A stretch of 64,000 nucleotides of DNA, taken from IMG/VR virus record IMGVR_UViG_3300017991_000003, positions 64,001 to 128,000 of that record. One strand, given 5' to 3'. How positions within the stretch are numbered: the stretch's first letter is position 1; each line of letters starts with the position of its first letter. Below the pieces are notes generated by a model. It saw only the letters and a program-made list of their open reading frames with translations, searched no databases and was not told the origin of the DNA. The position numbers were made by a program, and so were the translations under genes. Below are positions 4,487-56,886 of this stretch, piece by piece. The stretch comes from a virus.

Positions 4487-7027
4487 TCAGTTGCGCATAG
4501 CTAGCTCTTCTTCCCGCGTCATGACTCGGGAGGTGCTGGGCTGGGTGATCAGCGGACCACGATCGGGGATCAAGGTCTTGCACCACTCCTGCTCCTCCGG
4601 GAGCAGACGCGCACAGCTGGAGGCCAGCTCAACATCGCCGTTCTCGTCGGCTTCGACGAAGTCGGCCCAGTTCTCTGCGGTGAACAACCGATCCTCGCCC
4701 TTGATCCGAGCGAAGAAGGTGCCGACGGGCGGGACGTTGTCATCGCCCTCTTCAGCCCAGTTGTTGTAGCAGATAGAGGTGTCGGCCAGGATCGGGACAG
4801 ACAGCCCGAACCAGTCGTACTCCATGACGTACTTGATGAGCATGGCCGCCTCTTTGGCGAAGCGGATCGGGCACGCATAGATCAGCTCGTCGTGGACCTG
4901 CCCGATCACCCGTAGGCCTGGGTATCGAGGCAGCACGTACTTGCGGATGATGAACATGTTGGCCTTGATCATGTCCGCCGAGGAGCCTTGCACCTTGGCG
5001 TTCAGGATCTTGCCGGGCATGACGTCGTTGTCGTTGAAGTGACGGTGACGTCCGCTGATCATCAGGAAGCTGCGTTGACCTTTCTGCCACTTACCCTGTA
5101 GCGCCTGCATGTAAGCAGGGATGCCGCTGTAGGTCTGGAAGAAGCCATCACGCCAGAGCGCTGCCTTTTCGATGTCGTACTCGCCCTTAGGCGTGAGTAG
5201 CGGCACCATACGGGCGAACTTCTCCGGCCCCATCCCGTAGTTGAAGCCGAAGTTGACGTTCTTGGCCGGCTTCCGCGGGATCCCGAGGCTCTGCGAGGTC
5301 TTGGCGTGAACATCGCCCGTGTGAAACACGAGCCCGTGGCTCGTGATCGTCTCGTGGTAGACGTTGCGTAGGTTGAAGTCGCCAGTGAAGTGAGAGATCA
5401 CTCGAAGCTCGACCTGGCTCTGGTCGCTGACGATCAGGCAGTAGCCCTCAGGTGCCCACTCATCAGGGGGCGGGCACACGAAGACTTCACGTAGCGCCGG
5501 GCCCAGGCCCTGGATCCTCTCGTCGAAGTGCGCGGGCTTTTTGCGGGAAGGGATGTTCTGGAGGTTGGGTCCAGAACTGCTGAACCGGCCAGTATCCGTA
5601 CCGAAGGAGTTGAAGCGACCGTGCACTTGACCATCCCCGGAGTCTTCAACCTTCTCGCCCATGCTTTCGACATAGGTGCTGAGGAGCTTCGAGACAGTTC
5701 GGAAGTTCAGGATGGCCTGCCCGATCGGATGATCGAGCATGCTCAGCGTGGTGGTGTCCGTGCTGATGTACTGCTCCCGGATCTCGTCCGGGATACGGTC
5801 CGGGTTGCGTAGGTCGACTACGCAGTCTTCCCAGAAGATCCGACCGTTGGCAGGGTTGCGCTTCATGTACCCCTGCTCGAGGCACCACTTGACGCCGTCC
5901 TTGGTCAGCTTCGGTAGCGGGATACGCTCCCCGTTGATCCAAGCCCACCGGAACGTGGGAGGCGTCAGGTACAGCGTCTGGAACAGGAGGGTGCAGAGCT
6001 GCTTCGGGCTGTTGGGGTTGAACTCCTGCTTGGCCAGCTCGTAGCAGTGGGAGCGGAACTCCTCGACTAGCGGACGCATGATATTGCCGCGCTTCTTGAG
6101 CTCCTCGAGATCGATCGTCATACCGGCGATCTCCATGCCGATGGTCTGCCACCGGACATCCATCTCGATCTCCATCCACGTACCTGCGCCATCCTTGCGG
6201 ACCTCGGCGAGGAGCTTACGCAGGAGGGGGAACAGGTAGCGGGCGTCGTCGCGGGCGTAGTCTTTGAGGAGCTTCAGAGCCTGCGCGCGCAGGTTGGCGA
6301 TCTTGGTCTCCGCTCGGGCTGTGTGGGCTCGGACGTAGTCCTCGTACTTCCACCGCTCGAGCTCATCAAAGAGTTCATCCCGCCAGGCCAAGAGAGCGCC
6401 ATTCTCCTCTTTCGACAGGTCCTTGCCGGTGATGCCGCGCTCGTCCAACACTTTCTTGCGGATGGCGTTCCAGGACATGGCAGGGTCGTCGAAGGACGGG
6501 TACGGCCGCCACCAGGTCCCAGGCTGGGACCACTTCTCCAGGTTGTCCTTGTGCATGGCCAGTCGCGCGTTAGTCAGATCGATCTCACGCAGGAGCGGAT
6601 TGTCGAGCGCCGCCTCCTCGTAGGTTGTCATCTGCTTACGCAGCCATTTCTGGACCAGCAGCTTGAGGCCCTTGGGACGCTCCTCGTCAACTGCCCAGGC
6701 GTAGCCGAGCGTGTCGAGGCAGCGGGCCTGCCACTCCTCGTACAGCACCATGCCGGCTCGATGGCCGACGATCACGTCGTAGGGGGCGTTGTGCGCCATC
6801 CCGAACAGCTTCGGGTTCGTAGCTAGGCGCTTGAATGTCTCGCACAGCTCAGGCGTGATCTCGAAAGCCCCGGCGCGGTTAGGTGTCGCCAAAGCTAGGA
6901 CGGTGGGTCGCGCCGTCCACGCGTTCTTCGCGTCCTCAGAGCGTCCGGTCTCCGACTCCGTCTCGAAGTCGAACGCAAAGTAGCCCGTCTCGAGGGCGTC
7001 GGCTTCAATCAGATGTAGAGGATCCAT
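4487..7027 (-). CDS. DNA polymerase, family A, with N-terminal 3'-5' exonuclease domain
   Basis: 846 aa; Exo I FAFDFETE; Pol motif A LIVSDQSQVELRV; motif B RKPAKNVNFGFNYGMG; motif C GQVHDELIY; ATG at 7027..7025. Confidence 0.9.
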   Translation of the reverse strand: MDPLHLIEADALETGYFAFDFETESETGRSEDAKNAWTARPTVLALATPNRAGAFEITPELCETFKRLATNPKLFGMAHNAPYDVIVGHRAGMVLYEEWQARCLDTLGYAWAVDEERPKGLKLLVQKWLRKQMTTYEEAALDNPLLREIDLTNARLAMHKDNLEKWSQPGTWWRPYPSFDDPAMSWNAIRKKVLDERGITGKDLSKEENGALLAWRDELFDELERWKYEDYVRAHTARAETKIANLRAQALKLLKDYARDDARYLFPLLRKLLAEVRKDGAGTWMEIEMDVRWQTIGMEIAGMTIDLEELKKRGNIMRPLVEEFRSHCYELAKQEFNPNSPKQLCTLLFQTLYLTPPTFRWAWINGERIPLPKLTKDGVKWCLEQGYMKRNPANGRIFWEDCVVDLRNPDRIPDEIREQYISTDTTTLSMLDHPIGQAILNFRTVSKLLSTYVESMGEKVEDSGDGQVHGRFNSFGTDTGRFSSSGPNLQNIPSRKKPAHFDERIQGLGPALREVFVCPPPDEWAPEGYCLIVSDQSQVELRVISHFTGDFNLRNVYHETITSHGLVFHTGDVHAKTSQSLGIPRKPAKNVNFGFNYGMGPEKFARMVPLLTPKGEYDIEKAALWRDGFFQTYSGIPAYMQALQGKWQKGQRSFLMISGRHRHFNDNDVMPGKILNAKVQGSSADMIKANMFIIRKYVLPRYPGLRVIGQVHDELIYACPIRFAKEAAMLIKYVMEYDWFGLSVPILADTSICYNNWAEEGDDNVPPVGTFFARIKGEDRLFTAENWADFVEADENGDVELASSCARLLPEEQEWCKTLIPDRGPLITQPSTSRVMTREEELAMRN

Positions 7028-7177: not shown

Positions 7178-8539
7178 TCAGCCCGAGAAGGGGTCGCCGG
7201 CCAAGGGGTCCTGCCCCTCAGCCGGCTCCTTACCGTCACCGGCCTGCTGAGCCCCCGCATCCGGGAGATCCTGGAGCGCGCCCAGGGCCGATCCCGACGT
7301 CTGAACCGGCTGAGTCGCCGGAGCTTGCGTCACTTCGGGCTGGGCCGGCGGGGCAAGGGGCCCTCCAAGAGGAGGAGCGGCGGGGGCAGCGGGCGCGGGG
7401 GCTGCGGCAGGTGCGGAGCCGGGAAAGGGCAGGCCGCCACCCTGCGGGGCCGGCTGCGGCGCCGGGGCCTGCTGCGGGAAGAGGCCGCTACCCTGCGCCG
7501 GCTGCTGGAACAGCGGGGTCGGAGCAGGCTGAGGCTGAGCACCGGATTGCTGCATCGGCTGCTGCATCGGCTGCTGCATCGGCTGCTGCATCGGCTGAGG
7601 CGCCGCCCCGGCCGGCGGCATTTGACCATAACCCGCGCCGCCGGGGACCGTGCCGGTTGCTTGGGAGCCAGGACAGATCTGATCCATGACCCCCGCGTTG
7701 TAGGAGAGGCCTCGAACACCCGGGTGCTCGTCGCAGATCTGCCGGTGCAGACGCAGGATTTCACGAGCCTCCGCCTCGGAGTAGGCCGGGTAGATCTTGT
7801 TGAAGTCCACCGAGCCGGCCAGAGCCGCGAAGTCGCCCTCAGGGTTGGGGGCCATGTAGGCCGCTAGGGCTGTGACTAGCTCCTCGGTCGTGCCGAACGT
7901 CTGTCCCTGGTTCTCGCCCAAGTAGTACATCGGCATCCAGTTACCCAGCTTCGGGGCCTGCTTCTCGTGGGTGCGGTTCACGTTCCACACCGAGCCAAGG
8001 ATCGAGCGGTTCTTCATCTGACTGAAGGCCAGGAACTGATCGAGCATGGACTGGTTAGAGAACATGACCCAGCGGATGCTCCACGGGATCGTCTGCTGCT
8101 GCTTGTTGACCCAAGGGGTCATGTTGAGGACGGCCGCGGCCATTCCCAGCATCGGTTTCGGCTTACCGAGAGCGGGTCCGAACAGGTCCGGCTGACCGTT
8201 CTCGACCGGGTTACCCGCGTTATCGACGCCGGTGATGTGGGCAGCACGAACGATCTCCCACGTGGGGAAGCTAGCGTTCGGCGTGTTTTTCCACCCAGTA
8301 GCCACCCGGTAGTGCGGGATGAGGGTGACGTCGGAAAGGAAGGCGACCTGGATCTGCTGGCCGCGGGGCGCGAAGAACTCGCGATGAGGCTTGCGCTCGT
8401 CCCAGGTCTTGGACCACGGTCCGCTGCCGGCACCGATGGAGACGTTCTCGTTCTGGGCGATGGCCTGGTACTGCTGAAGGCCGCCCTGGGCTTGACCGCC
8501 TTGAGCGAAGGGGGTCGCGGGGTTCGTGGGGTCTGTCAT
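7178..8539 (-). CDS. hypothetical protein with Gln/Pro/Ala-rich low-complexity C-terminus
   Basis: 453-aa ORF between polymerase and primase; tail contains (QQPM)n encoded by a tandem 12-bp repeat. Confidence 0.6.
   Translation of the reverse strand: MTDPTNPATPFAQGGQAQGGLQQYQAIAQNENVSIGAGSGPWSKTWDERKPHREFFAPRGQQIQVAFLSDVTLIPHYRVATGWKNTPNASFPTWEIVRAAHITGVDNAGNPVENGQPDLFGPALGKPKPMLGMAAAVLNMTPWVNKQQQTIPWSIRWVMFSNQSMLDQFLAFSQMKNRSILGSVWNVNRTHEKQAPKLGNWMPMYYLGENQGQTFGTTEELVTALAAYMAPNPEGDFAALAGSVDFNKIYPAYSEAEAREILRLHRQICDEHPGVRGLSYNAGVMDQICPGSQATGTVPGGAGYGQMPPAGAAPQPMQQPMQQPMQQPMQQSGAQPQPAPTPLFQQPAQGSGLFPQQAPAPQPAPQGGGLPFPGSAPAAAPAPAAPAAPPLGGPLAPPAQPEVTQAPATQPVQTSGSALGALQDLPDAGAQQAGDGKEPAEGQDPLAGDPFSG
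7549..7596. repeat. tandem 12-bp repeat (about 4 copies of tgcatcggctgc)
   Basis: Direct tandem repetition read in the sequence inside CDS 7178..8539; in-frame. Confidence 0.8.
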
Positions 8540-8554
8540 GATTCGTTGCGTCTG

Positions 8555-9574
8555 CTAGAGGAGGGAGGAGTATCGATCTGAGAGGTCTTGTTGCGTCAGG
8601 TACTTCGGGTCCTGATCGAGGTGGTACAGCATGCTAGGCACGCCGTGCTTCGTCAATACTTTGTTGACATTTTTGGCGGCATTCTGACCCTCGACATCGG
8701 GGTCCAGGAGGATGCCCACCAGGGACGGTTCGGAGGCTCGAATCAGCTTGGCCTTCTCCGCTGAGAAGGCGAGCCCGTTGATACCCGCGGCACGAGCCCC
8801 AAGCTGGACCAGGTGCATCGCATCAAAGGGGCCTTCAACCAAGGACAGGGGCTTACCGGCCCCATAGGGCAGTAGATGCTCGCCGAACAGGTGACGGCCG
8901 CTCACGAAAGGCCAGATCGTCCAGTACTTGAGGCCGTTTCCTGCTAGGGGCCGAACCTGTGCTCCGACGCAGCGAACGATGCCGACGTCTGGAGACACCA
9001 GGATGGGGAATACGAGGCAGGGCGCCTTGGTCGTTTTCGGGTTGTCGTATCGGTCGGTCCCCATGCCGTCGTCGGTGTAACCGGCGGGGACGGTGGTGCA
9101 GTAGAACTGCTCGATGGCAAAATCGGGATCGACCCCCTTAGCGGCCAGCACATCCCGTCCGAGGGGGAGCATCGGCACACGTAGCAGGTCAGCTAGGAAC
9201 ACGGTGTAGTCCGTGTCCGGGGTCGTACGGGTCTGTCGAGTGACGCCGGCAGCGGAGAAGTCCAGGCTTTCTAGCGCCAACTCCCGCTCTCGGGCCTTCA
9301 TCTGGAGGGCCAATCCCGCATACTGACCACCACTGAGGCGGTTCAGCTCGAGGAGCGTATCCCCCAGTGATGACAGGTGTTTACACGCGTGGCACTTCAG
9401 GAGGGTCACTCCAGGACCCACCGTCGCGGTCATCGACGGCCTTCGATCAGATCCTTTCCCATGAGTCCACGGAGCCAGCAGGCAGGAAAACTTCACATGG
9501 CGGTCCCCCGCGGGTCGAAGCTCCCCCGCTTGGGGCAGCTGGGCGAGGACGGTTCGGAGCTCTACCTCTTGCAT
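8555..9574 (-). CDS. DNA primase, DnaG-like (zinc finger + TOPRIM)
   Basis: CHC2-like zinc finger (KFSCLLAPWTHG...LKCHACKH) and TOPRIM-like segment (LSLVEGPFDAMH...ILLDPDVEGQNAA). Track start 9634 overlaps the divergent gene at 9633, so internal ATG 9574 used; start uncertain. Confidence 0.7.
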   Translation of the reverse strand: MQEVELRTVLAQLPQAGELRPAGDRHVKFSCLLAPWTHGKGSDRRPSMTATVGPGVTLLKCHACKHLSSLGDTLLELNRLSGGQYAGLALQMKARERELALESLDFSAAGVTRQTRTTPDTDYTVFLADLLRVPMLPLGRDVLAAKGVDPDFAIEQFYCTTVPAGYTDDGMGTDRYDNPKTTKAPCLVFPILVSPDVGIVRCVGAQVRPLAGNGLKYWTIWPFVSGRHLFGEHLLPYGAGKPLSLVEGPFDAMHLVQLGARAAGINGLAFSAEKAKLIRASEPSLVGILLDPDVEGQNAAKNVNKVLTKHGVPSMLYHLDQDPKYLTQQDLSDRYSSLL

Positions 9575-9632
9575 CTTTTCGGGTTCTCGGGGTTGGACTT
9601 CATAAGCTAAGACAGGGGAGGACCCCACACAC

Positions 9633-12600
9633 ATGGCCGATAACGTCCAGCTCTACGACGCGCATCTAAACCTCTGGACCCTCAGGACATCCGAGGACAC
9701 AGAAATCCACACGCCGCACCACGTGTCGCGGCTGGCGGACGGGGAGGGGCGCTTCTACAGGCCCGGACGGCCGGTACCTGTGTCGATCTACGGGACGGAC
9801 GGGGTCGAGATCAACATCGAGGCCGGCTCGATCGCTGTCAGCACAGACCACAACGAGGACTCAGTAGCGGTCTTCGGGTCGTCGACCCCTGAGGGGCTGG
9901 AAAACTTCAGGTCGCTGGTGGTGGACCCCCAGGGGCACCTCCAGACCACAGTGGTCTCAGCGCCTGGGGTGGAGCCCGTCGGGGACTCGCCCGACGCGGG
10001 GCAGCTAGGTACGGTCATCCTAGGGGTCCAGGTAGGGGCAACGCCAGCTAGTCAGGTCACGGGGGACGGTCGGACAGCCCCTCTGATCATGGACGATCGG
10101 GGCCGGCTCTTCGTCTCTTTCGGCAACTCCGTCGCGGTTCTGCCCTTCACGCAAAAGGGTGACCTACTTACTTATGACGGATCTGACGAAGTTGTCCTGG
10201 GCCCGACGGTCGACGACGCGCTTCTGACACTGGACTCCAGTACCAGTACCGGCCTCAGGTGGGTGAGCCCGGTGACGAGCTCCCCCAGCCCCGTGCTCTT
10301 CCTACGCGAGGATCTAACATGGGCTCTGCCCTCAGCAGGGGCACCGGGCGGGGCTGCGGGCGGAGACTTGGGCGGGACCTATCCGAACCCGTCTGTGGTC
10401 GCTATCCAAGGGATTTCCACTTCTGCGGCTGCGCCAACGCCTGGGCAGACCTGGGTGTACACCGGCAGCGCTTGGAGTCCGGGAAGCCCGGCTACCGGAG
10501 CTGCTACGGACCACGGGACGCTCACAGGGCTCCTCGACGATGATCACACCCAGTACATCCTGGCTGATGGCTCTCGAGACTTCTCAGGCTCAATCGGCAT
10601 GGGTGGGAATGAGATCACGGATGTGGCCTCTCCTATCCTCGTATCCTGGGCAGCTAACAAGGGTTACGTTGATGATCAGATCACCGCGTCCGTCATCACG
10701 GACCACGGCGGGCTAGGCGGGCTCGGGGATGACGACCATACCCAGTACGTGTTGGTGGCTGGCACTCGTGCGTTCACGGGCGATCAGAGCCTAGGCGGTA
10801 ACAAGATCACGAGTCTGGGGTCCCCGACCACCGCAAGCGATGGAGCCAACAAAGGTTACGTCGACGCTAACGTGGTCACGGACCACGGCGCTTTGATCGG
10901 GCTGGGGGATGATGACCACACCCAGTACATCCTGACTGCGGGGACTCGAGCCTTCAGTGGTAACCAGAGCCTAGGCGGCAACCTGATCACAAGCCTAGGC
11001 TCGCCTACTACCGCAAGTGGTGGTGCTAACAAGGGTTACGTTGACGCGGCTATCACGTCGGCAGTGATCACGGATCACGGAGGGCTTGGCGGCCTGACGG
11101 ACGACGACCATACGCAGTACGTCCTGGTCGCAGGTACTCGAGCGTTCACAGGCAGCCAGAGCCTGGGCGGTAACCTGATCACGTCGCTAGGGTCTCCTAC
11201 TGTTGTAAGTGACGCAGCTAACAAAGGTTACGTTGATGCGCAGATCCCGACGAGCCTACCCCCTAGCGGGGCTGCTAGTGGTGATCTAGGCGGCACGTAC
11301 CCCGGGCCTACTGTGGTGGCCATTCAAGGCACCGGAGTCAGTGCAAACGCTCCAAGTACTGGTGATGGCCTGGTTTACACCGGAGCGGCTTGGAGTCCGA
11401 CCGCGGTCTATCGACCTGGCGGGACGGATGTGGCTGTGGCAGACGGGGGCACCGGGGCGTCGGACGCGTCCACGGCGCGTAGCAATCTAGGCCTGACCAT
11501 CGGGCTCGACGTCCAAGCCCACTCCGCAGTTCTTGACGCTACAACGGCCAGTTACACAACCGCGGCCGAGGGTAAGCTCTCGGGCATCGAGACCAACGCT
11601 GATGTCACGGACACAGCCAACGTGACGGCCGCTGGCGCTGTCATGATCGGCACAACGGCCGCGGCCGGGGACCTGAGCGGTACCTACCCGAGCCCGACGG
11701 TCGTGGCCATTCAGGGGACTGGCGTCTCGAGCACTGCGCCGAGCTCTGGGCAGGCCCTGATCTACTCCGGCACTGTCTGGAGCCCCAGCACGCTCCCCAG
11801 CGGGGTGACGGACCACGGGGCCCTGACCGGACTCGGAGACGACGACCATACCCAGTACATCCTGGTTGGTGGCACTCGCGCCTTCACGGGCAACCAGTCG
11901 ATGGGCGGCAACCTGCTCACGTCGTTGGGGAGCCCGGTGGCGGTAACAGACGCAGCTAACAAGGGTTACGTCAATGCCTCGATCACCGCGGCCGTCGTCA
12001 CGGACCACGGGGCCCTTGACGGGCTGGCCGATGACGACCACACCCAGTACCACAACGACGCTCGGGCGCTGACGTGGTTGGGGACGCGCGACACAGATGA
12101 CCTGGACCCGAGCGCCACCCGTCTCTACATGAGCCCGGGTGAGCGCACCAAGCTCGCCGGGATCGAAGCGCTTGCCGATGTGACCGATGCGGCCAACGTG
12201 GCCGCGGCCGGCGCTGTCATGGTCGGTGACGCTGCGGGCGGTGATCTTAGCGGTACCTACGCAAACCCGTCCGTGGTCGCGATCCAGGGTACGGGTTGCT
12301 CTTCAGCAACGCCGACCGCCGGCCAGACCTGGGTCTACTCCGGGTCCCAGTGGAGTCCTGGCTCACCCGCTGTTGGTGGCGCGTCAGATCACGGAACCCT
12401 GACCGGGCTGGGCGACGACGACCACACTCAGTACATTCTTGTTGACGGTACACGGGCCTTCACAGGCGCAGTTAGTCTCGGTGGGAGCCAGATCAACAGC
12501 CTGGCTTCGCCCACGCTCCCAGCAGATGCAGCCAACAAGGGCTACGTCGACGACCAGATCCCGACGAGTCTACCCCCTAGCGGGGCAGCGTCTGGCGACC

Positions 12601-13409
12601 TTGGTGGGACCTACCCGGGCCCAGACGTGGTGGCTATCCAGGGGACCGCGGTCAACTCGGCGACGCCGACGACGGGTGAGGCCCTGCTCTACTCGGGAAC
12701 GCAGTGGAGCCCTGGGCCGATCAACTTCCTCGAGCTCAACGACGTCGATCCCACAGGCCTGACCAACCTCGACCTGTTCTACTACAGCTCGGCGTCGGGG
12801 ACTATCGTCCGGTCTAGCGGCCTCACGACCTACGCGTTCTACACGCACAGCGGATCGCACATCCACGGACAGTACGACGCAATCGACGGGGATCAGCTAT
12901 CGATCACCCAGCCGGGCGTCAACTACTCCCCGACGACCGACGCGACATACGGCACCAACACGGCGCACCTCGCTGCCCATCTGCGGGGTATCGGTCTGGT
13001 CCTGGAGGATGTCAGTCCCGCGGTCACCAAGCTCGCCGGGATCGAGGCGGGCGCTGAAGCCAACGACGTTCAGACCAAGAGCATCACGATCGAGGCGCCG
13101 ACCACGACGGAAGACATCTCGTTCTTCTACGCTCCGGTAGCGATGACGATCTCAGAGATGGTCACGGTCCTGGTGGGCTCTCCTACGCCGTCCCTAGCGT
13201 GGACGCTCCGGCACAGCACCGACAGGAGCGCTGTGGGCAACGAGGTCATCACCGGGGGATCCACGGCGAATAGTACGACGACCGGTAACGTGCTGACCTC
13301 CTTCAACGACGCAACGGTCCCAGCCAACTCCTTCCTGTGGGTTGAAACGGCGAGCCCCAGCACGAACGTGACGAGCTTCCAGCTCAGCGTTGAGTACACC
13401 GACGACTGA
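9633..13409 (+). CDS. tail fibre protein, repeat-rich
   Basis: 1258 aa; about 7 copies of a ~60-aa unit (TDHGxLxGLxDDDHTQYxL...GGNxITSLGSP...ANKGYVD) resembling phage tail-fibre repeats, plus 5 copies of GDLGGTYPxPxVVAIQG; GGGAGG SD before ATG. Confidence 0.85.
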   Translation: MADNVQLYDAHLNLWTLRTSEDTEIHTPHHVSRLADGEGRFYRPGRPVPVSIYGTDGVEINIEAGSIAVSTDHNEDSVAVFGSSTPEGLENFRSLVVDPQGHLQTTVVSAPGVEPVGDSPDAGQLGTVILGVQVGATPASQVTGDGRTAPLIMDDRGRLFVSFGNSVAVLPFTQKGDLLTYDGSDEVVLGPTVDDALLTLDSSTSTGLRWVSPVTSSPSPVLFLREDLTWALPSAGAPGGAAGGDLGGTYPNPSVVAIQGISTSAAAPTPGQTWVYTGSAWSPGSPATGAATDHGTLTGLLDDDHTQYILADGSRDFSGSIGMGGNEITDVASPILVSWAANKGYVDDQITASVITDHGGLGGLGDDDHTQYVLVAGTRAFTGDQSLGGNKITSLGSPTTASDGANKGYVDANVVTDHGALIGLGDDDHTQYILTAGTRAFSGNQSLGGNLITSLGSPTTASGGANKGYVDAAITSAVITDHGGLGGLTDDDHTQYVLVAGTRAFTGSQSLGGNLITSLGSPTVVSDAANKGYVDAQIPTSLPPSGAASGDLGGTYPGPTVVAIQGTGVSANAPSTGDGLVYTGAAWSPTAVYRPGGTDVAVADGGTGASDASTARSNLGLTIGLDVQAHSAVLDATTASYTTAAEGKLSGIETNADVTDTANVTAAGAVMIGTTAAAGDLSGTYPSPTVVAIQGTGVSSTAPSSGQALIYSGTVWSPSTLPSGVTDHGALTGLGDDDHTQYILVGGTRAFTGNQSMGGNLLTSLGSPVAVTDAANKGYVNASITAAVVTDHGALDGLADDDHTQYHNDARALTWLGTRDTDDLDPSATRLYMSPGERTKLAGIEALADVTDAANVAAAGAVMVGDAAGGDLSGTYANPSVVAIQGTGCSSATPTAGQTWVYSGSQWSPGSPAVGGASDHGTLTGLGDDDHTQYILVDGTRAFTGAVSLGGSQINSLASPTLPADAANKGYVDDQIPTSLPPSGAASGDLGGTYPGPDVVAIQGTAVNSATPTTGEALLYSGTQWSPGPINFLELNDVDPTGLTNLDLFYYSSASGTIVRSSGLTTYAFYTHSGSHIHGQYDAIDGDQLSITQPGVNYSPTTDATYGTNTAHLAAHLRGIGLVLEDVSPAVTKLAGIEAGAEANDVQTKSITIEAPTTTEDISFFYAPVAMTISEMVTVLVGSPTPSLAWTLRHSTDRSAVGNEVITGGSTANSTTTGNVLTSFNDATVPANSFLWVETASPSTNVTSFQLSVEYTDD
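10506..12560 (+). repeat. intragenic array of ~180-bp diverged repeats in the tail fibre gene
   Basis: Repeated DDDHTQY / ANKGYVD units seen in the translation and DNA. Confidence 0.75.
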
Positions 13410-16127: not shown

Positions 16128-16129
16128 GT

Positions 16130-16164
16130 AAAAAAGAGGAGAGTAGCGAGCCGCTGCCCTCCTC
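16130..16164 (-). terminator. candidate intrinsic terminator between convergent genes
   Basis: A-run 16130-16135 then GAGGAG...CTCCTC stem on plus strand (hairpin followed by U-run on minus strand); long loop, weak. Confidence 0.3.
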
Positions 16165-16208
16165 CACACCGTGGGTCATCACCCCCTAGGATCCTCCCCG
16201 CAGTGTCG

Positions 16209-17174
16209 CTAGATCTGGTACGCGTCCAGCGGCGTGCCGCGGGTCATCCCCAGCCTGAAGCCAGCCGCCTTCGCGTGACCGCCACCGGAGATGGCGATGC
16301 CGCGGTCGAACAAGTCGCGCGCGACGGCCGAGACGTCGATGTCGTTGTCTGCGTGAGTGCGGAGACTGACGATAAGCTGATTGGTATCTCGATCAATGCG
16401 CCAGTTGCCCACAATCGCATCGCCCATCTTGTTGTAGAGAAGCTCAGCAGCCTCAGAGATGTAACGATCCTCAGGAGCCAACCACATCTGGTACCCGCCG
16501 ATCTCGTACAGCGAGACGTTGTAGTTGCTCTCGGCTGCTTGCTTGTAGATGTGCCGGCGGATGCCTCGACCCTCGGCCACAAGCCGGTCCCGGCCATCCG
16601 GGCAATCAAGACTTTGGTTGAGCATGTCCCAGTTCTCCCAGTGCCGGGGATAGCTCTGGATAGCAGCGGCAATCTCCTCAGTGTCCGGAAGCTCCTTCAG
16701 CCATAGATCACGATCACGGATGTACTCGATGAGCGGGGTCGAGTGCTCGAAGAGCAGACGATTTGTCAAAGACGCTCCGCACTCCTCCATGTCGAACACG
16801 GCGAAGTCCCGGCATCCGCTGAGCGCATCCTTGGCGGTCTTGTGGTGATCGATGACCACCAGGTTCTTCATGCGCTCGAGCCAAGCGAGCAGGACATCAC
16901 GGCCCCAAGAGAAGTCCACGATGATGATCTGCCAACCATCCGGGACCTCTGGCACGGTGCCGTCGTAGTTGACTCCGCTGAAAGTCAGCTGGGTCTTACC
17001 GTCCCACAACGTATCGAACCCCTTGCAGAGATCCGTGAAGCCGTGGGCCATGAACCACTTGCGAACAAGCCACGCAGCCGTGAAGCCATCGGAGCAGGGG
17101 TCGTGATAGAACACGACTGTCGGGACGTCCAGGAGGATGCGGACGCCAGGCTCACTTCGGGGCTTGATAGACAT
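16209..17174 (-). CDS. DHH/DHHA1-family phosphoesterase (NrnA-like)
   Basis: 321 aa; DHH motif (VVIDHHKT), DHHA1 motif (SGGGHAKAAGF), N-terminal acidic motif (YHDPCSDG). Confidence 0.8.
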   Translation of the reverse strand: MSIKPRSEPGVRILLDVPTVVFYHDPCSDGFTAAWLVRKWFMAHGFTDLCKGFDTLWDGKTQLTFSGVNYDGTVPEVPDGWQIIIVDFSWGRDVLLAWLERMKNLVVIDHHKTAKDALSGCRDFAVFDMEECGASLTNRLLFEHSTPLIEYIRDRDLWLKELPDTEEIAAAIQSYPRHWENWDMLNQSLDCPDGRDRLVAEGRGIRRHIYKQAAESNYNVSLYEIGGYQMWLAPEDRYISEAAELLYNKMGDAIVGNWRIDRDTNQLIVSLRTHADNDIDVSAVARDLFDRGIAISGGGHAKAAGFRLGMTRGTPLDAYQI

Positions 17175-17562
17175 GAGGAAGTTTCTCGAGGATGAGGTAG
17201 ATGTCGCCAGCGTCCCAGGCAGCGGGATCGGTGAGGGCCTTGAGTACCTGAGTAGACGCCTTCAAATCATCCGGCGCGTAGGGGTCGCCGGTCTTGGCGT
17301 TCGACCACATTTTGGGCGTCAGTCGAAGCGGGCCGGCCCCAACCGGGGAGGACGCAATGTCGCCGCGGTACAGGAGCACGCTGATGACGTAAGCGATCTC
17401 TTGATCATCGAGGTGCTGATCCTCGACAACCTCGGAGGGCATCGACTTCGTCAGCTTGGGACTCACGTAGGTACTGAACAGGTCCCAGGACACGAAGCCG
17501 AGGAACCCGACAAGCAGGAGCGCTACTACGGTAGCGGTAACCCTAGCGATGAAGGTTTTCAT
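17152..17562 (-). CDS. membrane protein, lysis-associated (candidate holin or spanin)
   Basis: N-terminal hydrophobic helix (VTATVVALLLVGFLGFVSW); immediately downstream of the SLT-domain protein; start uncertain. Confidence 0.4.
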   Translation of the reverse strand: MKTFIARVTATVVALLLVGFLGFVSWDLFSTYVSPKLTKSMPSEVVEDQHLDDQEIAYVISVLLYRGDIASSPVGAGPLRLTPKMWSNAKTGDPYAPDDLKASTQVLKALTDPAAWDAGDIYLILEKLPHVYQAPK

Positions 17563-18107
17563 GGTAAGCGCGGACACGGGTCCAGAAGGGGATGGTGGAG
17601 ACCCGGGTCATGCCCATGGGTCCTCCGTTATGAATTCGAGCGATGGTCTCCAAGTCTCGAGCTGCCCAAGCCTCGGGGACCCAGCGAAGCATGTAGGCTT
17701 TGACGACCTGAGCTCCCATGGGGTAGATGCGGCAGAGCTCGTAGTCATCCGGGATACTTGGATCCTGCTCGCGAGCATCCTGCCAGTAGGCGCGGCTGAT
17801 CTGAAAGGGGCCGATTGATGTTCCGCCGCCCCCATCCGGCGGGTCGTACTGGCCGTCGGTCTCGGCAAGCCAGATCAGCTCGAGGACCTGCTCTTCGGTG
17901 AGTACAGGCTCTGCCGGAGCCGGGACACGGTCGGCCGCTTCAACGCCTGCGGCAGCACCATCCTTGAAGCCTTGGTCGTAGGCCAGGCCGCTGTCCTTGC
18001 GGTAGTTGTACGCGGTGATTGACGCACTCAGCACCACCAGGATGGCGGTGACGAGAAACCACGCGACCCAATCGCGGGTGTGGTTGGTGAATGGTTGAGT
18101 AGTCATG
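17543..18107 (-). CDS. membrane-anchored lysozyme-like/SLT-domain lytic transglycosylase (candidate endolysin)
   Basis: ORF trimmed to ATG 18107..18105 (MTTQPFTNH...); N-terminal TM helix (WVAWFLVTAILVVLSASITAY) then SLT-like motifs (LAETDGQ, GPFQISRAYW, IARIHNGGPMG). Confidence 0.6.
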
Positions 18108-18198
18108 CTGGTTCTCTGGGTGGTTGTTACAAGACGTTTGTAGCCAAGGGACTTATGACCGATAGGAGACCCGAGCTGAGCACCCGGATCCCCTGTGG

Positions 18199-19593
18199 CT
18201 AGTAGGCAGCCTGACCACCGCTGCTCGCCATGTCCTGGACAGGGCCGAGCTGCGCGAACCGCATGTCGTAGAGATCCCATTGAACACGATAGGGTTGGTC
18301 GACCGCACCGTCTCGGACCTTGCCGAGCTTCATGTCGATGACGCGGGCGTTGTTACCGGCATCCTTCGGCGGTACCAGGAAGACGAGGTTGTTGGAGTCG
18401 TGCGAGATGCTCTGGCTGAAAGCCACAGCATCAGCGTTCGACCGGGCCAGCGTGCCTTCATTTCGGCGCAGCTGCGTGGCCAGCATGTAGTGACGGTTGG
18501 ACATCAGCGTATGCAGACGCATCTGCCGCATGTTGCCCTCCACCTTCTGCCAGCGCTCCTTACCAGGGCCCTCCATGTAGTAGAAGCCGTCGATCAAGAC
18601 CAGGTCCGCGCCAAACTCCTCAGCCTGTGCGGCAACCTGATCAGGAGTCGTAGCCTGGTTAGGGCCCACGATGCGCAGGTTCTCACCAACGCGAGCGTGC
18701 GGCCCGTCTGCTTTCAGGCTACGCAATGCCTCGAAGTAGGCCGCCTTCTCCACGTCACTTAGCTTCTGCTTCATGAGGCGGTTGAAGCTAGTGCTCGAGA
18801 GCACCGCGGCTTGGCGTCGAGCCACATCGATGGGTGCCATCTCCAGACTGACGATCAAGACCCGAGCGCGGGCGGCGTCCTTCTGCTCCTGCGTCCACGC
18901 CGGGATGTCGGGTGGGCGGTGGAAGATGTAGGGATCTCCCAGGAGGCCGGCGGCACTGTTGAGCACGATGAACCAAGTCTTGCCGAGGCCGGTAGGAGCC
19001 ACACAGCTGGTGATCTGCGCAGGGTGCCAGCCCCCAAGCTGTTCCTGAATGAACAGGAACGGACAAGGGATGCCGAGCTTCACGCCGGCCAGCCGATCGT
19101 TGTAGTCCTGCTCGAGATCCTCAGCGTACTCTCGGAAGTCCTTGATCTCCGTCTTGTGTGCCGAGTACCTAGCTTGCAACGTATGAGCGTACAAGGACAT
19201 CGCGTCCTTGATGTCGAACGGGTCGGTGCGCTCGGTCAGCTGCTTGTGAAGATCCTGAAGGCTCTCTAGCACATCTACACGCACCGCCTCCTTAGCGACT
19301 TCGTCGTAGAGAACCGAGATGCTCGCTTCCGGGATCTCAGTACCAGCCAAGATCGTGGGAAGCTCAGGCCAGGCGCGCTGCGCCGTGTCAGGCGTAGGAA
19401 GCTCGTTGTACTGTGCTCGGTACCCGACGACCCACTCGATGATCTCCGTCATCGGCTCTTGAAAGAACCCGGGGTTGAGTCCGTTCTTGGCGACGTGGTG
19501 GTCGAAGGCGGCTAGGTTCCGGTCACTCAGGATCTTGGTCAGGAAGAGAGCCTCGACCCTGTCTCGAGAGTTGACGTTGGTGAACCCGGTCAC
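18199..19593 (-). CDS. replicative DNA helicase, DnaB-like
   Basis: 464 aa; Walker A (APTGLGKTWF), SLEM motif (LIVSLEMAP), Walker B-like (DLVLIDGF); likely GTG start overlapping upstream stop. Confidence 0.8.
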   Translation of the reverse strand: MTGFTNVNSRDRVEALFLTKILSDRNLAAFDHHVAKNGLNPGFFQEPMTEIIEWVVGYRAQYNELPTPDTAQRAWPELPTILAGTEIPEASISVLYDEVAKEAVRVDVLESLQDLHKQLTERTDPFDIKDAMSLYAHTLQARYSAHKTEIKDFREYAEDLEQDYNDRLAGVKLGIPCPFLFIQEQLGGWHPAQITSCVAPTGLGKTWFIVLNSAAGLLGDPYIFHRPPDIPAWTQEQKDAARARVLIVSLEMAPIDVARRQAAVLSSTSFNRLMKQKLSDVEKAAYFEALRSLKADGPHARVGENLRIVGPNQATTPDQVAAQAEEFGADLVLIDGFYYMEGPGKERWQKVEGNMRQMRLHTLMSNRHYMLATQLRRNEGTLARSNADAVAFSQSISHDSNNLVFLVPPKDAGNNARVIDMKLGKVRDGAVDQPYRVQWDLYDMRFAQLGPVQDMASSGGQAAY

Positions 19594-21980: not shown

Positions 21981-23402
21981 TCAAGGGTTGGGGATGCCTC
22001 GGCGAGCGGCTGTGTACAGCGTGTCGAAGGCCTCGCCCCGGAGCTTGTAGGACGCCATGATGACGTCGCCTTTCCCGGTCGGAGGTGTCTTGTAGGACCT
22101 GAGAGCCTTGACGGCCAGCTCGAGGACCTCGGGCTCGTCGACCCACTCAGGGTAGATGTCCAGGACGCCGTTACGGATCATCGCGTCATGATCCTCGGTC
22201 GAGACAGGAGCGGCGTTGATGTACTCCATGTCGGACATCACGTGGTTGCGCAGCCAGGGGAAGATGTTGTTCCAGGCGGCGGTCCAGTAGGCAGGGATGA
22301 AACCGACGTCTTGGCACCTCTGAGGGCGCATGAAGTCCTTCCAGTCCCGGATCCAGACCTTCAGGAAGACGGCCTGCTGCTGGTTGGTCCTGATCCCCGA
22401 GCTGGCTAGGAGCTCGCGGAACTGGTTCATGATCTGGGTCGTACGGGCGATGGAGTGGGCTAGGCGACCGTTGGGGAGGGTCTCGTTGAACAGGCACTTG
22501 ATCCCTGAGGCCTTACAGGCTGCTCGGATCATGCGGACGAAGTCCATGGACTTCCAGCGATCGACGTGGGAGAGGTCGAGGGGATCGACTCGCTCAGCCG
22601 GCTTGGGGTGGGCTGGGTCCTCCTGAGGGGCCCTGTACTTGGACAGGGTCTGCTTGGACTTCTTCTTGACCCGGTCATCCTGACGGGCCTTCTCCTCGCT
22701 GTAGGCGGACCCACTGGTCACGTCTTGGATGCGCTTCTTCGGGGCCCTATCCCTTCGGGTCATATCCCCCTCCTGAGGGCTTGGCGGGTCCTCCCGCCTC
22801 GACGAGGAATGCGAAGCATTCCGAGGAGAGTCAGAGTCCTTGTAGGACTCTTCCTCGTAAGGGCGGAAGCCGGCTTCACCCTGCTGGCGGCCCCTAGAAG
22901 CGGGGTCACCCCCCGCCGCGGCCACGGTACCGGCCTTGGCCGCCTCCGGGCAGTGCTCCTGTACCCAGGGGTCGTCTCGGTACCTGGCCCACAGTGCTCG
23001 CCAGCACCTGTGGGTGATCGTTCGGGGCCGGAGCTTGACCACTAGGTCCAGCGTGATCGGGACCGGCACGAGCAGGCTCGAGGCCCGGACGCGGTGGGTC
23101 CGATGAAGCAGGCCCACCTCCACAAGCCGGTTCAGGATCGTACGGATCTGCCGGCTCGACAGGTCGCAGACGTCTCCGAGCACACGCGCGGACGCCGAGC
23201 AGATCCCGTTACTGGACGCCTCCGCGAAGGAGACCACCTCCTGATAGACAAAAACCTCGGTCTTGGTGAGGACCGAGGAGCGTCTGACAGCCTTGGACAT
23301 CCGGTCGTAGCCGGAGACCTCCGGGGAGGGGGGCAAAATAATCGCATTTCCCTTAGCAGAAGGGACTTGCGTTCTACCAGTCTCGTGTCCTAGACTACTC
23401 AT
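21981..23402 (-). CDS. winged-helix DNA-binding protein (possible replication initiator or regulator)
   Basis: 473 aa; N-terminal HTH-like segment (SASARVLGDVCDLSSRQIRTILNRLVEVGLL), central low-complexity basic linker. Confidence 0.55.
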   Translation of the reverse strand: MSSLGHETGRTQVPSAKGNAIILPPSPEVSGYDRMSKAVRRSSVLTKTEVFVYQEVVSFAEASSNGICSASARVLGDVCDLSSRQIRTILNRLVEVGLLHRTHRVRASSLLVPVPITLDLVVKLRPRTITHRCWRALWARYRDDPWVQEHCPEAAKAGTVAAAGGDPASRGRQQGEAGFRPYEEESYKDSDSPRNASHSSSRREDPPSPQEGDMTRRDRAPKKRIQDVTSGSAYSEEKARQDDRVKKKSKQTLSKYRAPQEDPAHPKPAERVDPLDLSHVDRWKSMDFVRMIRAACKASGIKCLFNETLPNGRLAHSIARTTQIMNQFRELLASSGIRTNQQQAVFLKVWIRDWKDFMRPQRCQDVGFIPAYWTAAWNNIFPWLRNHVMSDMEYINAAPVSTEDHDAMIRNGVLDIYPEWVDEPEVLELAVKALRSYKTPPTGKGDVIMASYKLRGEAFDTLYTAARRGIPNP

Positions 23403-26756: not shown

Positions 26757-27491
26757 TCAGGTGAGTTGGAGGGAGTGCTGCGTCTGCGGCGCGGCTTTCC
26801 CACCGAGCACGTCGACCACGATGGTGTTGAAGCTGGGCTTCATCGGGTCGTCGATCGTCAGGACCTGGGCGAACCAGGTCTGCAACATGGCCTGGGCGAC
26901 CGCTTGGTTCGCCAGAGCCAGTTGCGGCTGCGTCTCGTACTCCTGGGTGCAGTCCAGCTGATCGGGAAACTCGTTCCCAGGAGTCTCATGACGCATCTCG
27001 GGGTTCCGTTCGGTGAGCGACGCGCAGACGTCCTCGCTGTTGATGCGGCGCCAGAGCATGGCCTGGCCGCTGTCGAGGTCGTTGCCGCCGTCCACCCACG
27101 TGAACTCGTCGAGCTTGTCGAGCTGCTCCTCGAGGAAGCAGCGGGTCTTGTTGTTGTCCACGCAGCCGAACAGCGTGACGCCCTCGACCAACCACTCACG
27201 GTGGTGGTTCAGGAGCCGATCGCTCAGGTACATGGAGATCACCCGGACGTCCAGGCCCGGGAAGGTGTCTCGCAGGGTTCGGGCCATGATCTCGGCTTTG
27301 TTCTGGCCGATGGCCGCGGCGCCGTGCTGGCGCGCGAGGTTGTGGTCCTCGACCTCGTCGCCGTCGATGATGAAGAGGGTCGGATTCTGGATCCGATCCC
27401 CCACCATCTCAGGCGGGTGGGCGAGAAGACGAGCGAGCGGCTCGGCTAGGTGGTAGCCGATGCCGCCCGCTCCGAGGATGGCGTAGATCAT
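26757..27491 (-). CDS. E1-like enzyme (ThiF/MoeB/ubiquitin-activating family)
   Basis: Track ORF trimmed to ATG 27491 (MIYAILGAGGIGYHLAEP...); GxGxxG loop and E1 signature FIIDGDEVEDHNLARQ; collinear with ThiF/MoeB; starts 5 nt after the JAB gene stop. Confidence 0.8.
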   Translation of the reverse strand: MIYAILGAGGIGYHLAEPLARLLAHPPEMVGDRIQNPTLFIIDGDEVEDHNLARQHGAAAIGQNKAEIMARTLRDTFPGLDVRVISMYLSDRLLNHHREWLVEGVTLFGCVDNNKTRCFLEEQLDKLDEFTWVDGGNDLDSGQAMLWRRINSEDVCASLTERNPEMRHETPGNEFPDQLDCTQEYETQPQLALANQAVAQAMLQTWFAQVLTIDDPMKPSFNTIVVDVLGGKAAPQTQHSLQLT

Positions 27492-27495
27492 GAGG

Positions 27496-29394: not shown

Positions 29395-29816
29395 GTGGTG
29401 ATCAGGGGTGGGTGGAATCGACGTAGGACGGTCAAGACCGCCTGGGTGTCTTCGTTGATGTCTTGCTCGGCTAGTAGGTGATCGAGCCGGCGCATCCAAT
29501 CACGTAGGGTCGTGAGCTGCTCGGGGCCCATGCTCGCCGGAGGGTCGACGACAGGACGTCGGTCGCTCTCGTCTCGGATCAAGTTGAAGCGGATGTTGTT
29601 GATCCTTCCACCGTCTAGCGCAACTGGATAGGTGCGTTGGAAGATCTGACCAAGAGCCTCGATCATCTCTCGAGTAAGACCCGTCCCCTCAAGATCGAGA
29701 AGGTGCGGTCGGTTCTCGAGGATCCGAGATAGAAGCTCCTCGCGTCTCCGGATAATGGCCTGGTGATCATTGTGTCGATCACGCGCGCCTTGCACGGTGT
29801 CCAGAATGGTGGTCAT
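29391..29816 (-). CDS. hypothetical protein (operon member, no Cys)
   Basis: ATG 29816 (MTTILDTVQ...) overlaps stop of upstream gene (ATGA); 141 aa. Confidence 0.5.
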   Translation of the reverse strand: MTTILDTVQGARDRHNDHQAIIRRREELLSRILENRPHLLDLEGTGLTREMIEALGQIFQRTYPVALDGGRINNIRFNLIRDESDRRPVVDPPASMGPEQLTTLRDWMRRLDHLLAEQDINEDTQAVLTVLRRFHPPLITT

Positions 29817-56780: not shown

Positions 56781-56857
56781 AGGTGTAGGGGGCTGCGGGG
56801 TTGAGGCTCCAGTAAAGCAGATGGGACCGGCTTCTGCCTTGTTCTTGTCTCTTTTTC

Positions 56858-56886
56858 TTGACAAGCAGGCACACGCGCAAGAGACT
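56858..56886 (+). promoter_or_regulatory. candidate promoter (TTGACA, 17-bp spacer, weak -10 gagact)
   Basis: TTGACA at 56858-56863 in the divergent region between thyX and the exonuclease gene; -10 is weak. Confidence 0.25.

Follow-up and report, generated by a model that had tools for sequence, protein, structure and literature searches.

What would a phage gain from a DHH-type phosphoesterase, and to which branch of that superfamily does the enzyme belong? The question was raised by a gene in the window, i.e., the whole 64,000-nucleotide stretch analyzed here (positions 64,001 to 128,000 of the IMG/VR record IMGVR_UViG_3300017991_000003). The gene was confirmed as real, and the possibility of a pseudogene or a shadow ORF was ruled out by homology and motifs. 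A secreted enzyme was rejected as well, since the N-terminus of the protein is not signal-like. An identical protein is already on record, encoded by a 174.7-kb metagenome contig (the longest on record is 193 kb).

The surroundings of the gene are those of a phage. It is the final gene of a leftward operon and comes after the genes for a DnaB-like helicase and an O-like initiator. Translational coupling is suggested by a 23-nt overlap between the end of the adjacent upstream gene and the start of the DHH gene; in the ENA contig (L001), these two genes were called at 9613-10023 and 10001-10966, respectively. The upstream gene product has no PHROG or Pfam match. The operon is closed by a terminator-like hairpin 44 nt past the DHH stop codon, which was missed by a consensus terminator scan and found by direct folding: the RNA of 16128-16208 (minus strand) folds with -37.2 kcal/mol (z = -3.8), and none of 200 shuffled sequences folded as well. 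Megablast analysis of a 6-kb stretch against phages gave no match, indicating the absence of a close cultured relative, in agreement with the tblastn results for PolA (identity of 30% or less). The features of the locus are listed in Table 1.

Table 1. Coordinates in the window of the DHH/DHHA1 gene, its domains and motifs, and the adjacent features.
Feature	Position	Strand	Basis
Complete DHH/DHHA1 phosphodiesterase gene, 321 aa	16209..17174	(-)	ATG 17174-17172, TAG 16211-16209; ORF list
N-terminal DHH catalytic lobe, aa 19-160	16695..17120	(-)	Pfam DHH aa 20-144; AF2 strands/helices E19-24 to H147-156
Motif I, H24-D-P-C27-S-D29-G30	17085..17105	(-)	Sequence read directly
Motif II aspartate D87 (IIVDFS)	16914..16916	(-)	Invariant column in alignments A1 and A2
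Motif III, D109-H110-H111 (VIDHHKTA)	16842..16850	(-)	Invariant (alignment A1); sequence read directly
Motif IV, D154-R-D156-L-W158 (DRDLW)	16701..16715	(-)	Alignment
Ordered helical inter-lobe linker, aa 161-219; helices 165-174, 179-189 and long 192-219	16518..16694	(-)	AF2 secondary structure
C-terminal DHHA1 lobe, aa 220-310, including S270-L271-R272	16245..16517	(-)	Pfam DHHA1 aa 239-307
DHHA1 GGGH motif, G297-H300	16275..16286	(-)	Invariant; sequence read directly
Upstream gene of the same operon, 136-141 aa, hydrophobic N-terminus	17152..17577	(-)	ORF list
Terminator-like hairpin GGAGGAGGG...CUCUCCUC then UUUUUU	16129..16165	(-)	RNA fold

The first-pass annotation had described the product as an NrnA-like DHH/DHHA1 phosphoesterase inside a phage genome and had suggested two roles for it, the recycling of nucleotides or the degradation of second messengers of host immunity, with the fair caution that family membership was the sole basis. 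The superfamily and the phage setting were borne out. The protein matches the PHROG 4771 profile "DHH phosphoesterase" (E 1.4e-53, 183 bits, aa 17-308 against profile positions 16-283 of 363), and Pfam DHHA1 (PF02272) recognizes it with 28.1 bits, above the gathering score of 25.9. The score of Pfam DHH (PF01368) was 20.3 bits (E 7e-4), below the cut-off of 28.1; other members of the same clade likewise reach just 23-25 bits, so this model under-represents the clade, and membership in the DHH/DHHA1 superfamily was based on the motifs, PHROG 4771 and the fold. The AlphaFold model (pLDDT 92) has the two-lobed alpha/beta DHH/DHHA1 fold with the lobes joined by a linker block (pLDDT 93-98). Since the catalytic motifs are invariant across the family, the enzyme should be active, and it looks catalytically competent.

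The NrnA label, in turn, was not supported as a statement of family membership. NrnA (nanoRNase A) is a 5'-3' exonuclease of 2-5-nt RNA that also hydrolyzes pAp. According to the NCBIfam search, the NrnA-specific models are unmatched and only faint RecJ matches appear. The linker is an ordered helix, and JGI labels the homologues as COG2404/NrnB-type. A search of PDB sequences with the single sequence gave only noise, and a profile was required. The top matches among solved structures were archaeal RecJ2 and an uncharacterized DHH protein of H. pylori, and not NrnA. The H. pylori structure (6mtz) is the best sequence-profile match of the N-terminal lobe, including the D-x-W of motif IV. NrnA, CnpB (Rv2837c), GdpP, DhhP and TmPDE share with the window protein the superfamily, the metal site of motifs II-IV and the GGGH substrate lobe; profile matches to this group (E 1e-13 to 1e-8) fall mainly in the DHHA1 lobe, where those to DhhP, TmPDE and Rv2837c were noted.

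The metal site deviates from the canonical one in motif I, where the clade consensus Y-H-x-x-C-x-D-G-F has a cysteine in place of the first aspartate of DxD. H24, D29 and G30 never vary in the family alignments, and at least 90% of the sequences retain C27. The cysteine was found in 80 of the 82 viral-locus homologues and in at least 234 of the 245 retrieved family proteins, and an aspartate occupies its position in rare members (HGDYDG in P0029, HHADADG in L081). The position of the motif is backed by alignment to "HRDADG" of P. furiosus RecJ. Metals can be ligated by cysteine. The DHH of motif III is present in all 245 retrieved proteins; in motif IV, D154 and D156 are invariant and at least 90% of the sequences share R155, L157 and W158, DRDLW being found in most of the 82 viral-locus homologues. 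The window protein also carries 20 additional residues inserted behind motif I (aa 42-62) and has a long branch. A catalytically dead scaffold resembling eukaryotic Cdc45, acting only as a helicase accessory factor, is scarcely credible: unlike in Cdc45, the catalytic residues are all invariant across hundreds of homologues, and no helicase gene is among the neighbors that recur across loci.

Comparison with known proteins shows that the window protein is an ordinary further, divergent member of a known family. PHROG 4771 includes gp125 of Pseudomonas phage EL (YP_418158), gp298 of PaBG, gp259 of Caulobacter phage phiCbK and a "DHH family protein" of Vibrio phage P2/H20-like. Like the window protein, these members contain YHxxCxDG, DHH, DRDLW and GGGH, have a similar size, and are encoded in the company of early, replication or repair genes. 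EL gp125 clearly belongs to the clade (hhalign E 1.5e-58). In total, 111 cultured-phage records match the window protein in tblastn, with an identity of no more than 34%.

Several of the homologues labeled COG2404 by JGI carry the name [quoted passage not shown]. Of the NrnB definition of Myers et al. 2025 (DHH domain, GGGH and COG2404 assignment), the window protein itself shows the DHH domain and GGGH. Both NrnB and the window protein are stand-alone DHH and DHHA1 lobes with a helical linker. The window protein nevertheless lies outside the branch of the characterized NrnB clades A-C, which come from Bacillota and Campylobacterota (Myers et al. 2023 and 2025): the taxonomic range differs and motif I reads C-x-D instead of D-x-D. 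Clade A has a basic C-terminal extension of more than 100 aa, whereas the window protein has only 21 residues past GGGH (family median 19.5 aa) and hence no extension; its short C-terminus resembles those of the short-substrate clades NrnB-B and NrnB-C. The NrnB extension is needed for long RNA and is dispensable for dinucleotides (PMC10570053, PMC12709177). For this reason, its absence was counted in favor of action on short oligonucleotides.

The same feature bears on the possibility of a RecJ/RecJ2-type processive single-strand exonuclease, which would partner the phage replisome or recombination machinery in the resection of ssDNA ends and the removal of flaps or RNA primers. This reading is quite improbable. 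Archaeal RecJ2 (M. jannaschii MJ0831) and RecJ-Cdc45/GAN show 13-14% identity to the window protein and are proteins of 430-470 aa with additional domains, in contrast to the two-lobed core of 321 aa found here, which lacks the OB-fold or extra domains of RecJ. The RecJ models of NCBIfam reach 10-14 bits against cut-offs of 360-397 (TIGR00644, 10.3 versus 396.9; NF053576, archaeal RecJ, 14 versus 360). The basic extension that enables NrnB to act on long RNA is absent, and the cellular orthologues lie with genes of RNA decay and nucleotide metabolism rather than with those of recombination.

The clade to which the protein belongs is large and separate, with 9,485 clusters at 50% identity (E<=1e-30). 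Its hallmarks are the H-x-x-C-x-D-G motif I, the DRDLW motif IV, the ordered helical linker and the lack of a C-terminal extension. It is not purely viral: at least 570 species genomes carry it, and its range takes in phages, giant viruses, Nitrospirota, Binatia, Chloroflexota, Pseudomonas and others, and an archaeal MAG. An ordered inter-lobe helix has been described for the viral/cellular DHH groups 4 and 5 (Profeta et al. 2026, bioRxiv 10.64898/2026.07.21.739742), and helix 192-219 together with the mixed relatives fits the description of "Group 4" of these authors, which, like the window clade, combines viral and cellular members of several domains. In an NJ tree of 152 family members, the window protein formed a long branch weakly grouped with viral sequences; viral and genomic sequences were interleaved, and the direction of transfer therefore cannot be inferred. 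Ten longer members were examined for domain fusions, with no informative additional Pfam domain in any of them.

The gene neighborhoods point to nucleic acid and nucleotide metabolism. At 26 loci, nearly all from Nitrospirales/Nitrospirota, a conserved chromosomal synteny with genes for a rhomboid protein, a LOG-type protein, Maf, Dus and, as assigned by eye only, a PurK-like protein was detected. The gene for the exoribonuclease RNase II (RNB) adjoins the DHH gene at six loci, mostly from Binatia. Such contexts fit a housekeeping enzyme of end-stage RNA decay. The phage copies are located in replication, repair or nucleotide-salvage modules. The gene order in phage EL is NAD ligase, hypothetical protein, RNase H, DHH and RNA ligase; in PaBG, the gene is flanked by clamp loader/SbcC and SbcD, and in RTH11, a dTMP kinase gene is nearby. 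The neighbors in uncultured phage contigs include thymidine kinase, dCMP deaminase, dNMP kinase and adenylosuccinate synthetase. Clustering of neighbors over 70 IMG/VR loci confined every partner gene to six loci or fewer, which indicates that there is no operon-level "system". These contexts also make it very improbable that the enzyme is a phosphatase of pAp (3'-phosphoadenosine 5'-phosphate) or another small molecule, relieving the inhibition of host or phage enzymes: nucleic acid enzymes dominate, and no genes linked to sulfur assimilation or CoA were among the recurrent or annotated neighbors examined. In addition, pAp phosphatase activity usually accompanies nanoRNase activity and does not replace it.

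The best reading, to which we assign about an even chance, is that the protein degrades short linear oligonucleotides as a metal-dependent exonuclease. The housekeeping synteny of cellular orthologues, their location beside RNase II, the salvage, repair and replication modules of phages, and the exonucleases among the nearest folds incline us towards nucleic acid and nucleotide recycling. We infer the substrate class, the metal and the biological role as follows. A divalent-metal-dependent DHH/DHHA1 phosphodiesterase would attack short, linear, single-stranded oligonucleotides, such as nanoRNA or nanoDNA, remnants of RNA primers, and end products of host nucleic acid breakdown, and the nucleoside monophosphates released would feed phage DNA synthesis. 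The N-terminal lobe would provide the metal site (H24, C27, D29, D87, H110, H111 and D154/D156), the DHHA1 lobe (SLR 270-272 and GGGH 297-300) would hold the substrate, and the lobes would close on the helical hinge. The analogy with NrnB and RecJ2 makes a 3'-5' polarity probable, this direction being published for the NrnB proteins that have been assayed. The role may be likened to that of cellular nanoRNases and of T4 DexA, which shows that a phage can dedicate an exonuclease to the scavenging of host DNA (PMC12153337); DexA has an unrelated DEDD/DnaQ-like fold and not a DHH fold, and would be a functional analogue, not a homologue. If this reading is true, the gene is a routine auxiliary one, whose product would be an end-stage nuclease with which the phage replenishes the nucleotide pool.

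A counter-defense role is possible but unlikely. Here, the phosphodiesterase would hydrolyze nucleotide immune messengers, namely, the cyclic di- and trinucleotides of CBASS, cOA or SAM-AMP of type III CRISPR systems, or other signals, so that host effectors would never be activated. The idea is not new: it was proposed in 2021 for DHH proteins of jumbo phages (Iyer et al. 2021, PMC7824862) and shown in 2026 for two other viral DHH proteins. In vitro, mimivirus R106 (Euk-DHH-1B; YP_003986596) breaks down 3'3'-cGAMP along with many further messengers, and the phage protein DAF62216 blocks 3'3'-cGAMP-STING signaling in a cell-based assay (Profeta et al. 2026, bioRxiv 10.64898/2026.07.21.739742); the phage DHH of that study is Ph-DHH-3B. 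The DHH/DHHA1 enzymes also include phosphodiesterases of c-di-AMP and cGAMP, as well as NrN, which is encoded in type III CRISPR loci and is specific for SAM-AMP (PMC10600005). Known phosphodiesterases of cyclic-nucleotide or immune signals include GdpP, CdnP, NrN and MAD. The gene itself is an accessory, patchily distributed early gene, accompanied in some elements by defense-type or anti-restriction genes (S-AdoMet lyase in L173; GmrSD/AbiEii/Macro in L170), and the retron-type reverse transcriptase and E1-like protein of the window are of conflict type.

Against this, EL gp125, a member of the same clade, and the Lausannevirus DHH, a structural relative, were included in the cGAMP-STING screen and are absent from its two reported hits, and knockout of R106 had no fitness cost (Profeta et al. 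2026). According to published data, characterized NrnB enzymes leave c-di-AMP uncut; this result and that for EL gp125 were counted in favor of the exonuclease. Dedicated signal phosphodiesterases are structurally more distant from the window protein, which was unmatched in PADLOC. The housekeeping synteny of cellular orthologues also speaks against counter-defense, and relatives are encoded by giant viruses that infect amoebae, hosts not known to use cGAS-like signaling, which argues for a general role in nucleic acid metabolism. A broader version appears doubtful, in which the C-x-D enzymes of viruses derive from a cellular nanoRNase and destroy a wide range of nucleotide immune messengers; in this case, the cysteine could confer a distinct metal preference or chemistry undescribed for DHH enzymes.

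With the window protein, a family that is already annotated in more than 100 cultured phages gains a further divergent member. This family is very large, extending from phages and giant viruses to housekeeping loci in phyla that have been little studied, and nearly all of its members have a cysteine where textbooks place a metal-binding aspartate. A search of the literature found no published substrate profile or biochemical function for any member of the clade or of PHROG 4771, and a single biochemical study of the family would annotate thousands of genes.

Among the other genes of the window, two are of conflict type, encoding the E1-like protein and the nearby reverse transcriptase, which PADLOC assigned to the retron type. 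A diversity-generating retroelement (DGR) was rejected for the latter, since a template/variable repeat pair was not found; the long direct repeats are all located inside the tail fiber gene.

The DHH gene was recovered in the ORF list as an ATG-to-TAG frame encoding 321 aa, exactly as placed by the first-pass annotation, which had called a DHH/DHHA1 phosphoesterase inside a phage genome. This call was borne out by homology, by conserved motifs and by the surrounding phage genes. In the PHROG profile search, aa 17-308 matched PHROG 4771 'DHH phosphoesterase' (E = 1.4e-53). The Pfam DHHA1 model scored 28.1 bits, above its gathering score of 25.9, and the DHH model 20.3 bits, below its gathering score of 28.1; other clade members likewise fall slightly under the DHH threshold. 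Residues H24, D29, G30, D87, D109-H110-H111, D154, D156 and G297-G298-G299-H300 are invariant in an alignment of 40 sequences. An identical protein is carried by metagenome contigs, the longest recorded being 193 kb, and on a contig of 174.7 kb its gene neighbours are the same. The AlphaFold2 program gave a confident model (pLDDT 92.3, pTM 0.89) with two lobes joined by a long helix (residues 192-219). All of these observations indicate that the gene is real and, consequently, that the plus-strand ORFs lying over it are shadows. The enzyme is an intact, conserved and almost certainly active DHH/DHHA1 protein; an inactive Cdc45-like scaffold is contradicted by the invariant catalytic residues and is scarcely credible.

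By gene content, the window is phage DNA (see table). The DHH enzyme is encoded at the end of an operon of replication genes running leftward from the helicase gene through those of a lysozyme-domain protein and a small hydrophobic protein, with a 23-nt overlap between its start and the preceding gene. The hairpin 3' of the DHH gene faces the terminus of the convergent tail-fibre gene block. The lysozyme-like pair is an odd component of a replication operon; in Xanthomonas phage RTH11, an N-acetylmuramidase gene lies about 1 kb from the DHH gene.

Features of the window, with positions and, where assigned, strand
Feature	Positions	Strand	Remarks
Family-A DNA polymerase	4487-7027
Primase	8555-9634
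Tail fibre	9633-13409	plus	1258 aa, repeat-rich
Strong hairpin followed by U6	16165-16129	minus	44 nt past the DHH stop; -37.2 kcal/mol, z -3.8
DHH/DHHA1 protein	16209-17174	minus	321 aa
Small hydrophobic protein	17152-17577	minus	no family match
Destabilase (i-type lysozyme) domain protein	17543-18280	minus	hydrophobic segment; Pfam E 1e-8
DnaB-like helicase	18199-19593
O-like initiator	21981-23402
ThiF/E1-like protein	26757-27698	minus	Pfam E 9e-14; PADLOC 'E1-E2' matches weak
Prok-JAB-like protein	27496-29499	minus	667 aa; borderline Prok-JAB, 24.3 vs 25 bits
Reverse transcriptase	30652-31755	minus	367 aa; Pfam RVT_1 53 bits, above cut-off
Exonuclease	46823-47941
Thymidylate synthase	55923-56864

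As for the family, the description 'NrnA-like' in the first-pass annotation did not hold. NCBIfam returned only RecJ models, and these faintly (10-14 bits against cut-offs of 360-397). JGI annotates the homologues as 'oligoribonuclease NrnB/cAMP/cGMP phosphodiesterase (DHH superfamily)'. The profile search against PDB sequences matched DhhP, the uncharacterised Helicobacter pylori DHH protein 6mtz, TmPDE, Rv2837c and GdpP, mostly via the DHHA1 lobe. With the N-terminal lobe alone, the top match was 6mtz (E 1e-6), and the distinctive D-x-W motif IV lay within the alignment. GdpP (8.9), the SAM-AMP phosphodiesterase NrN (7.4) and PggH (7.4) were structurally more distant.

The window protein is a divergent new member of a known, already annotated phage protein family. 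Motif I of the clade reads Y-H-x-x-C-x-D-G-F, and most members have DRDLW as motif IV. The Cys stands where the canonical D-x-D has its first Asp, as follows from the spacing to the invariant Asp-Gly, from rare members with Asp there (HGDYDG in family protein P0029, HHADADG at locus L081) and from the alignment to 'HRDADG' of Pyrococcus furiosus RecJ. It was found in 80 of the 82 homologues from viral loci, which were retrieved with patterns that did not include it, and in at least 234 of 245 retrieved family proteins. The corresponding residue, C27, is a putative metal ligand. Few residues follow GGGH (21 aa in the window protein; family median 19.5 aa).

The clade is huge and common to viruses and cells: a HMMER search of 1.84 billion representative proteins yielded 9,485 clusters at E <= 1e-30 and 17,449 at E <= 1e-10. 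The family was detected by tblastn in 111 cultured-phage records, every one at 34% identity or less, including phiCbK-like Caulobacter and Brevundimonas phages, temperate Vibrio anguillarum phages and jumbo phages of Pseudomonas, Ralstonia, Serratia, Klebsiella, Xanthomonas and Acinetobacter. It also occurs on at least 302 IMG/VR contigs. The nearest predicted viral structures include those of phages PaBG, RP12 and ME3 and giant-virus proteins (Marseillevirus, Klosneuvirus, Hokovirus, Pithovirus and Lausannevirus; TM 0.69-0.77). Scanning about 185,000 species genomes with the pattern CxDGF[TG]AAW revealed relatives in at least 570, among them Nitrospirales, Binatia, Dehalococcoidia, Acidobacteriota, cyanobacteria, Pseudomonas and one Thorarchaeota MAG. 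In a quick NJ tree, viral and genomic sequences were interleaved, and the window protein formed a long branch with viral ones.

No neighbour was conserved across 70 viral loci, the largest neighbour cluster covering 6. Genes of nucleotide metabolism and replication recur: thymidine kinase, dCMP deaminase, dNMP kinase and adenylosuccinate synthetase were confirmed by Pfam, and DNA polymerases and methyltransferases were identified by eye. The gene orders are NAD ligase, hypothetical, RNase H, DHH, RNA ligase in EL; clamp loader, SbcC, hypothetical, DHH, HNH, SbcD in PaBG; dTMP kinase, hypothetical, DHH in RTH11; and ThiF, metallophosphoesterase, DHH, helicase in ME3. PurA, a nucleoside deoxyribosyltransferase (weak) and thioredoxin lie near the gene on uncultured contig L172, and clamp loader and RegA on T4-like contig L173. 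In phiCbK-type and temperate phages, it lies amid small early genes. EL gp125 (L165, 32709-33947) has an N-terminal extension of about 110 aa, and its flanking NAD-dependent DNA ligase, RNase H and RNA ligase genes resemble an Okazaki-fragment or RNA-repair cluster.

In 26 cellular loci, nearly all from Nitrospirales/Nitrospirota (L094, L106, L111, L115 and others), the chromosomal neighbours are fixed: a rhomboid gene is at +1 and a LOG/Lysine_decarbox gene at -1, with Dus, Maf and PurK-like genes (PurK by eye only) close by. An RNase II (RNB) exoribonuclease gene adjoins the DHH gene in six loci, mostly of Binatia (L096, L100, L108, L118, L120, L126). Such synteny and adjacency are expected for a housekeeping enzyme completing RNA decay, which suggests that the clade is a candidate housekeeping nanoRNase in these little-studied phyla.

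The closest folds, the synteny of the cellular copies, the surroundings of the phage copies and the absence of an extension for long substrates point to an enzyme that breaks down short linear oligonucleotides into mononucleotides, probably 3'-5', and thereby supports replication of the phage and its supply of nucleotides; we give this reading about an even chance. NrnB proteins are 3'-5' exoribonucleases, and those tested did not cleave c-di-AMP (Myers et al. 2023, 2025; PMC10570053, PMC12709177). RecJ2 is a 3'-5' exonuclease preferring ssRNA (PMC5615345), and a RecJ2/RecJ-type exonuclease acting on ssDNA or RNA at forks or DNA ends is an improbable alternative here; a pAp phosphatase is very improbable. 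T4 DexA, of unrelated fold, provides a precedent for host-DNA scavenging by a phage exonuclease (PMC12153337).

The functional hypothesis of the first-pass annotation, degradation of second messengers used by host immunity, is already published: jumbo-phage DHH phosphodiesterases were proposed to counter SMODS/CBASS and CRISPR signalling (Iyer et al. 2021, PMC7824862). In addition, the DHH enzyme NrN specifically degrades SAM-AMP, a type III CRISPR signal (Chi et al. 2023, PMC10600005). [quoted passage not shown] There, 3'3'-cGAMP, like many other messengers, was degraded in vitro by mimivirus R106, whose knockout had no fitness cost, and one phage DHH (DAF62216) blocked 3'3'-cGAMP-STING signalling. 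Its test panel included EL YP_418158 (gp125, as Ph_DHH_7B), which clearly belongs to the present clade (hhalign E 1.5e-58; YHKNCLDG, DRDLW, GGGH), and the DHH protein of Lausannevirus, a structural relative; neither is among the reported hits. Degradation of immune messengers, favoured by precedent among other viral DHH proteins and by the accessory-gene distribution, seems rather unlikely for the window enzyme. Since DHH enzymes can be promiscuous, the proposed roles are not mutually exclusive. What is modestly new here is descriptive: the almost invariable replacement of Asp by Cys in motif I, the clade size, the housekeeping synteny in Nitrospirales and Binatia, and the fact that no published substrate profile was found for any member.

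One cellular copy is a counter-example: on a Cereibacter sphaeroides-type contig (L170), the DHH gene (8001-8927) is part of an island resembling a mobile element, together with an N6/N4 DNA methylase, GmrSD_C, AbiEii, a Macro-domain protein, a metallophosphatase and a convergent MYG1-type exonuclease gene. These conflict genes are unlike the surroundings in the housekeeping loci.

Megablast of a 6-kb stretch against phages found no match, and thus no close cultured relative, and PolA identity to any record was 30% or less in tblastn. Neither PHROG nor Pfam gave a match for most large ORFs (for example, 34193-36247, 37502-40981, 53982-55907 and 60367-62778). The G+C content is about 62%, and the contig size (175-193 kb) indicates a large, essentially undescribed phage lineage.

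The reverse transcriptase was classed by PADLOC as retron-type (RT_III-A E 2.4e-44, RT_XIII 3e-43), which is unusual in a large phage genome; a search of the 64-kb window for a template/variable repeat pair of the DGR type gave none. Just downstream, the adjoining ThiF/E1-like and Prok-JAB-like ORFs may represent a phage ubiquitin-like conjugation/deconjugation module or a Cap2/Cap3-like pair. They share about 200 nt, and one of the two starts is therefore probably wrongly called. In Acinetobacter phage ME3, the ThiF gene is about 3 kb from the DHH gene. Long repeated DNA in the window is confined to the tail-fibre gene, which holds internal direct repeats of several families: a 90-nt unit, present seven times, encodes a T-D-H-G-x-L-x-G-L-x-D-D-D-H-T-Q-Y-type segment, and other units are of 59 to 215 nt.
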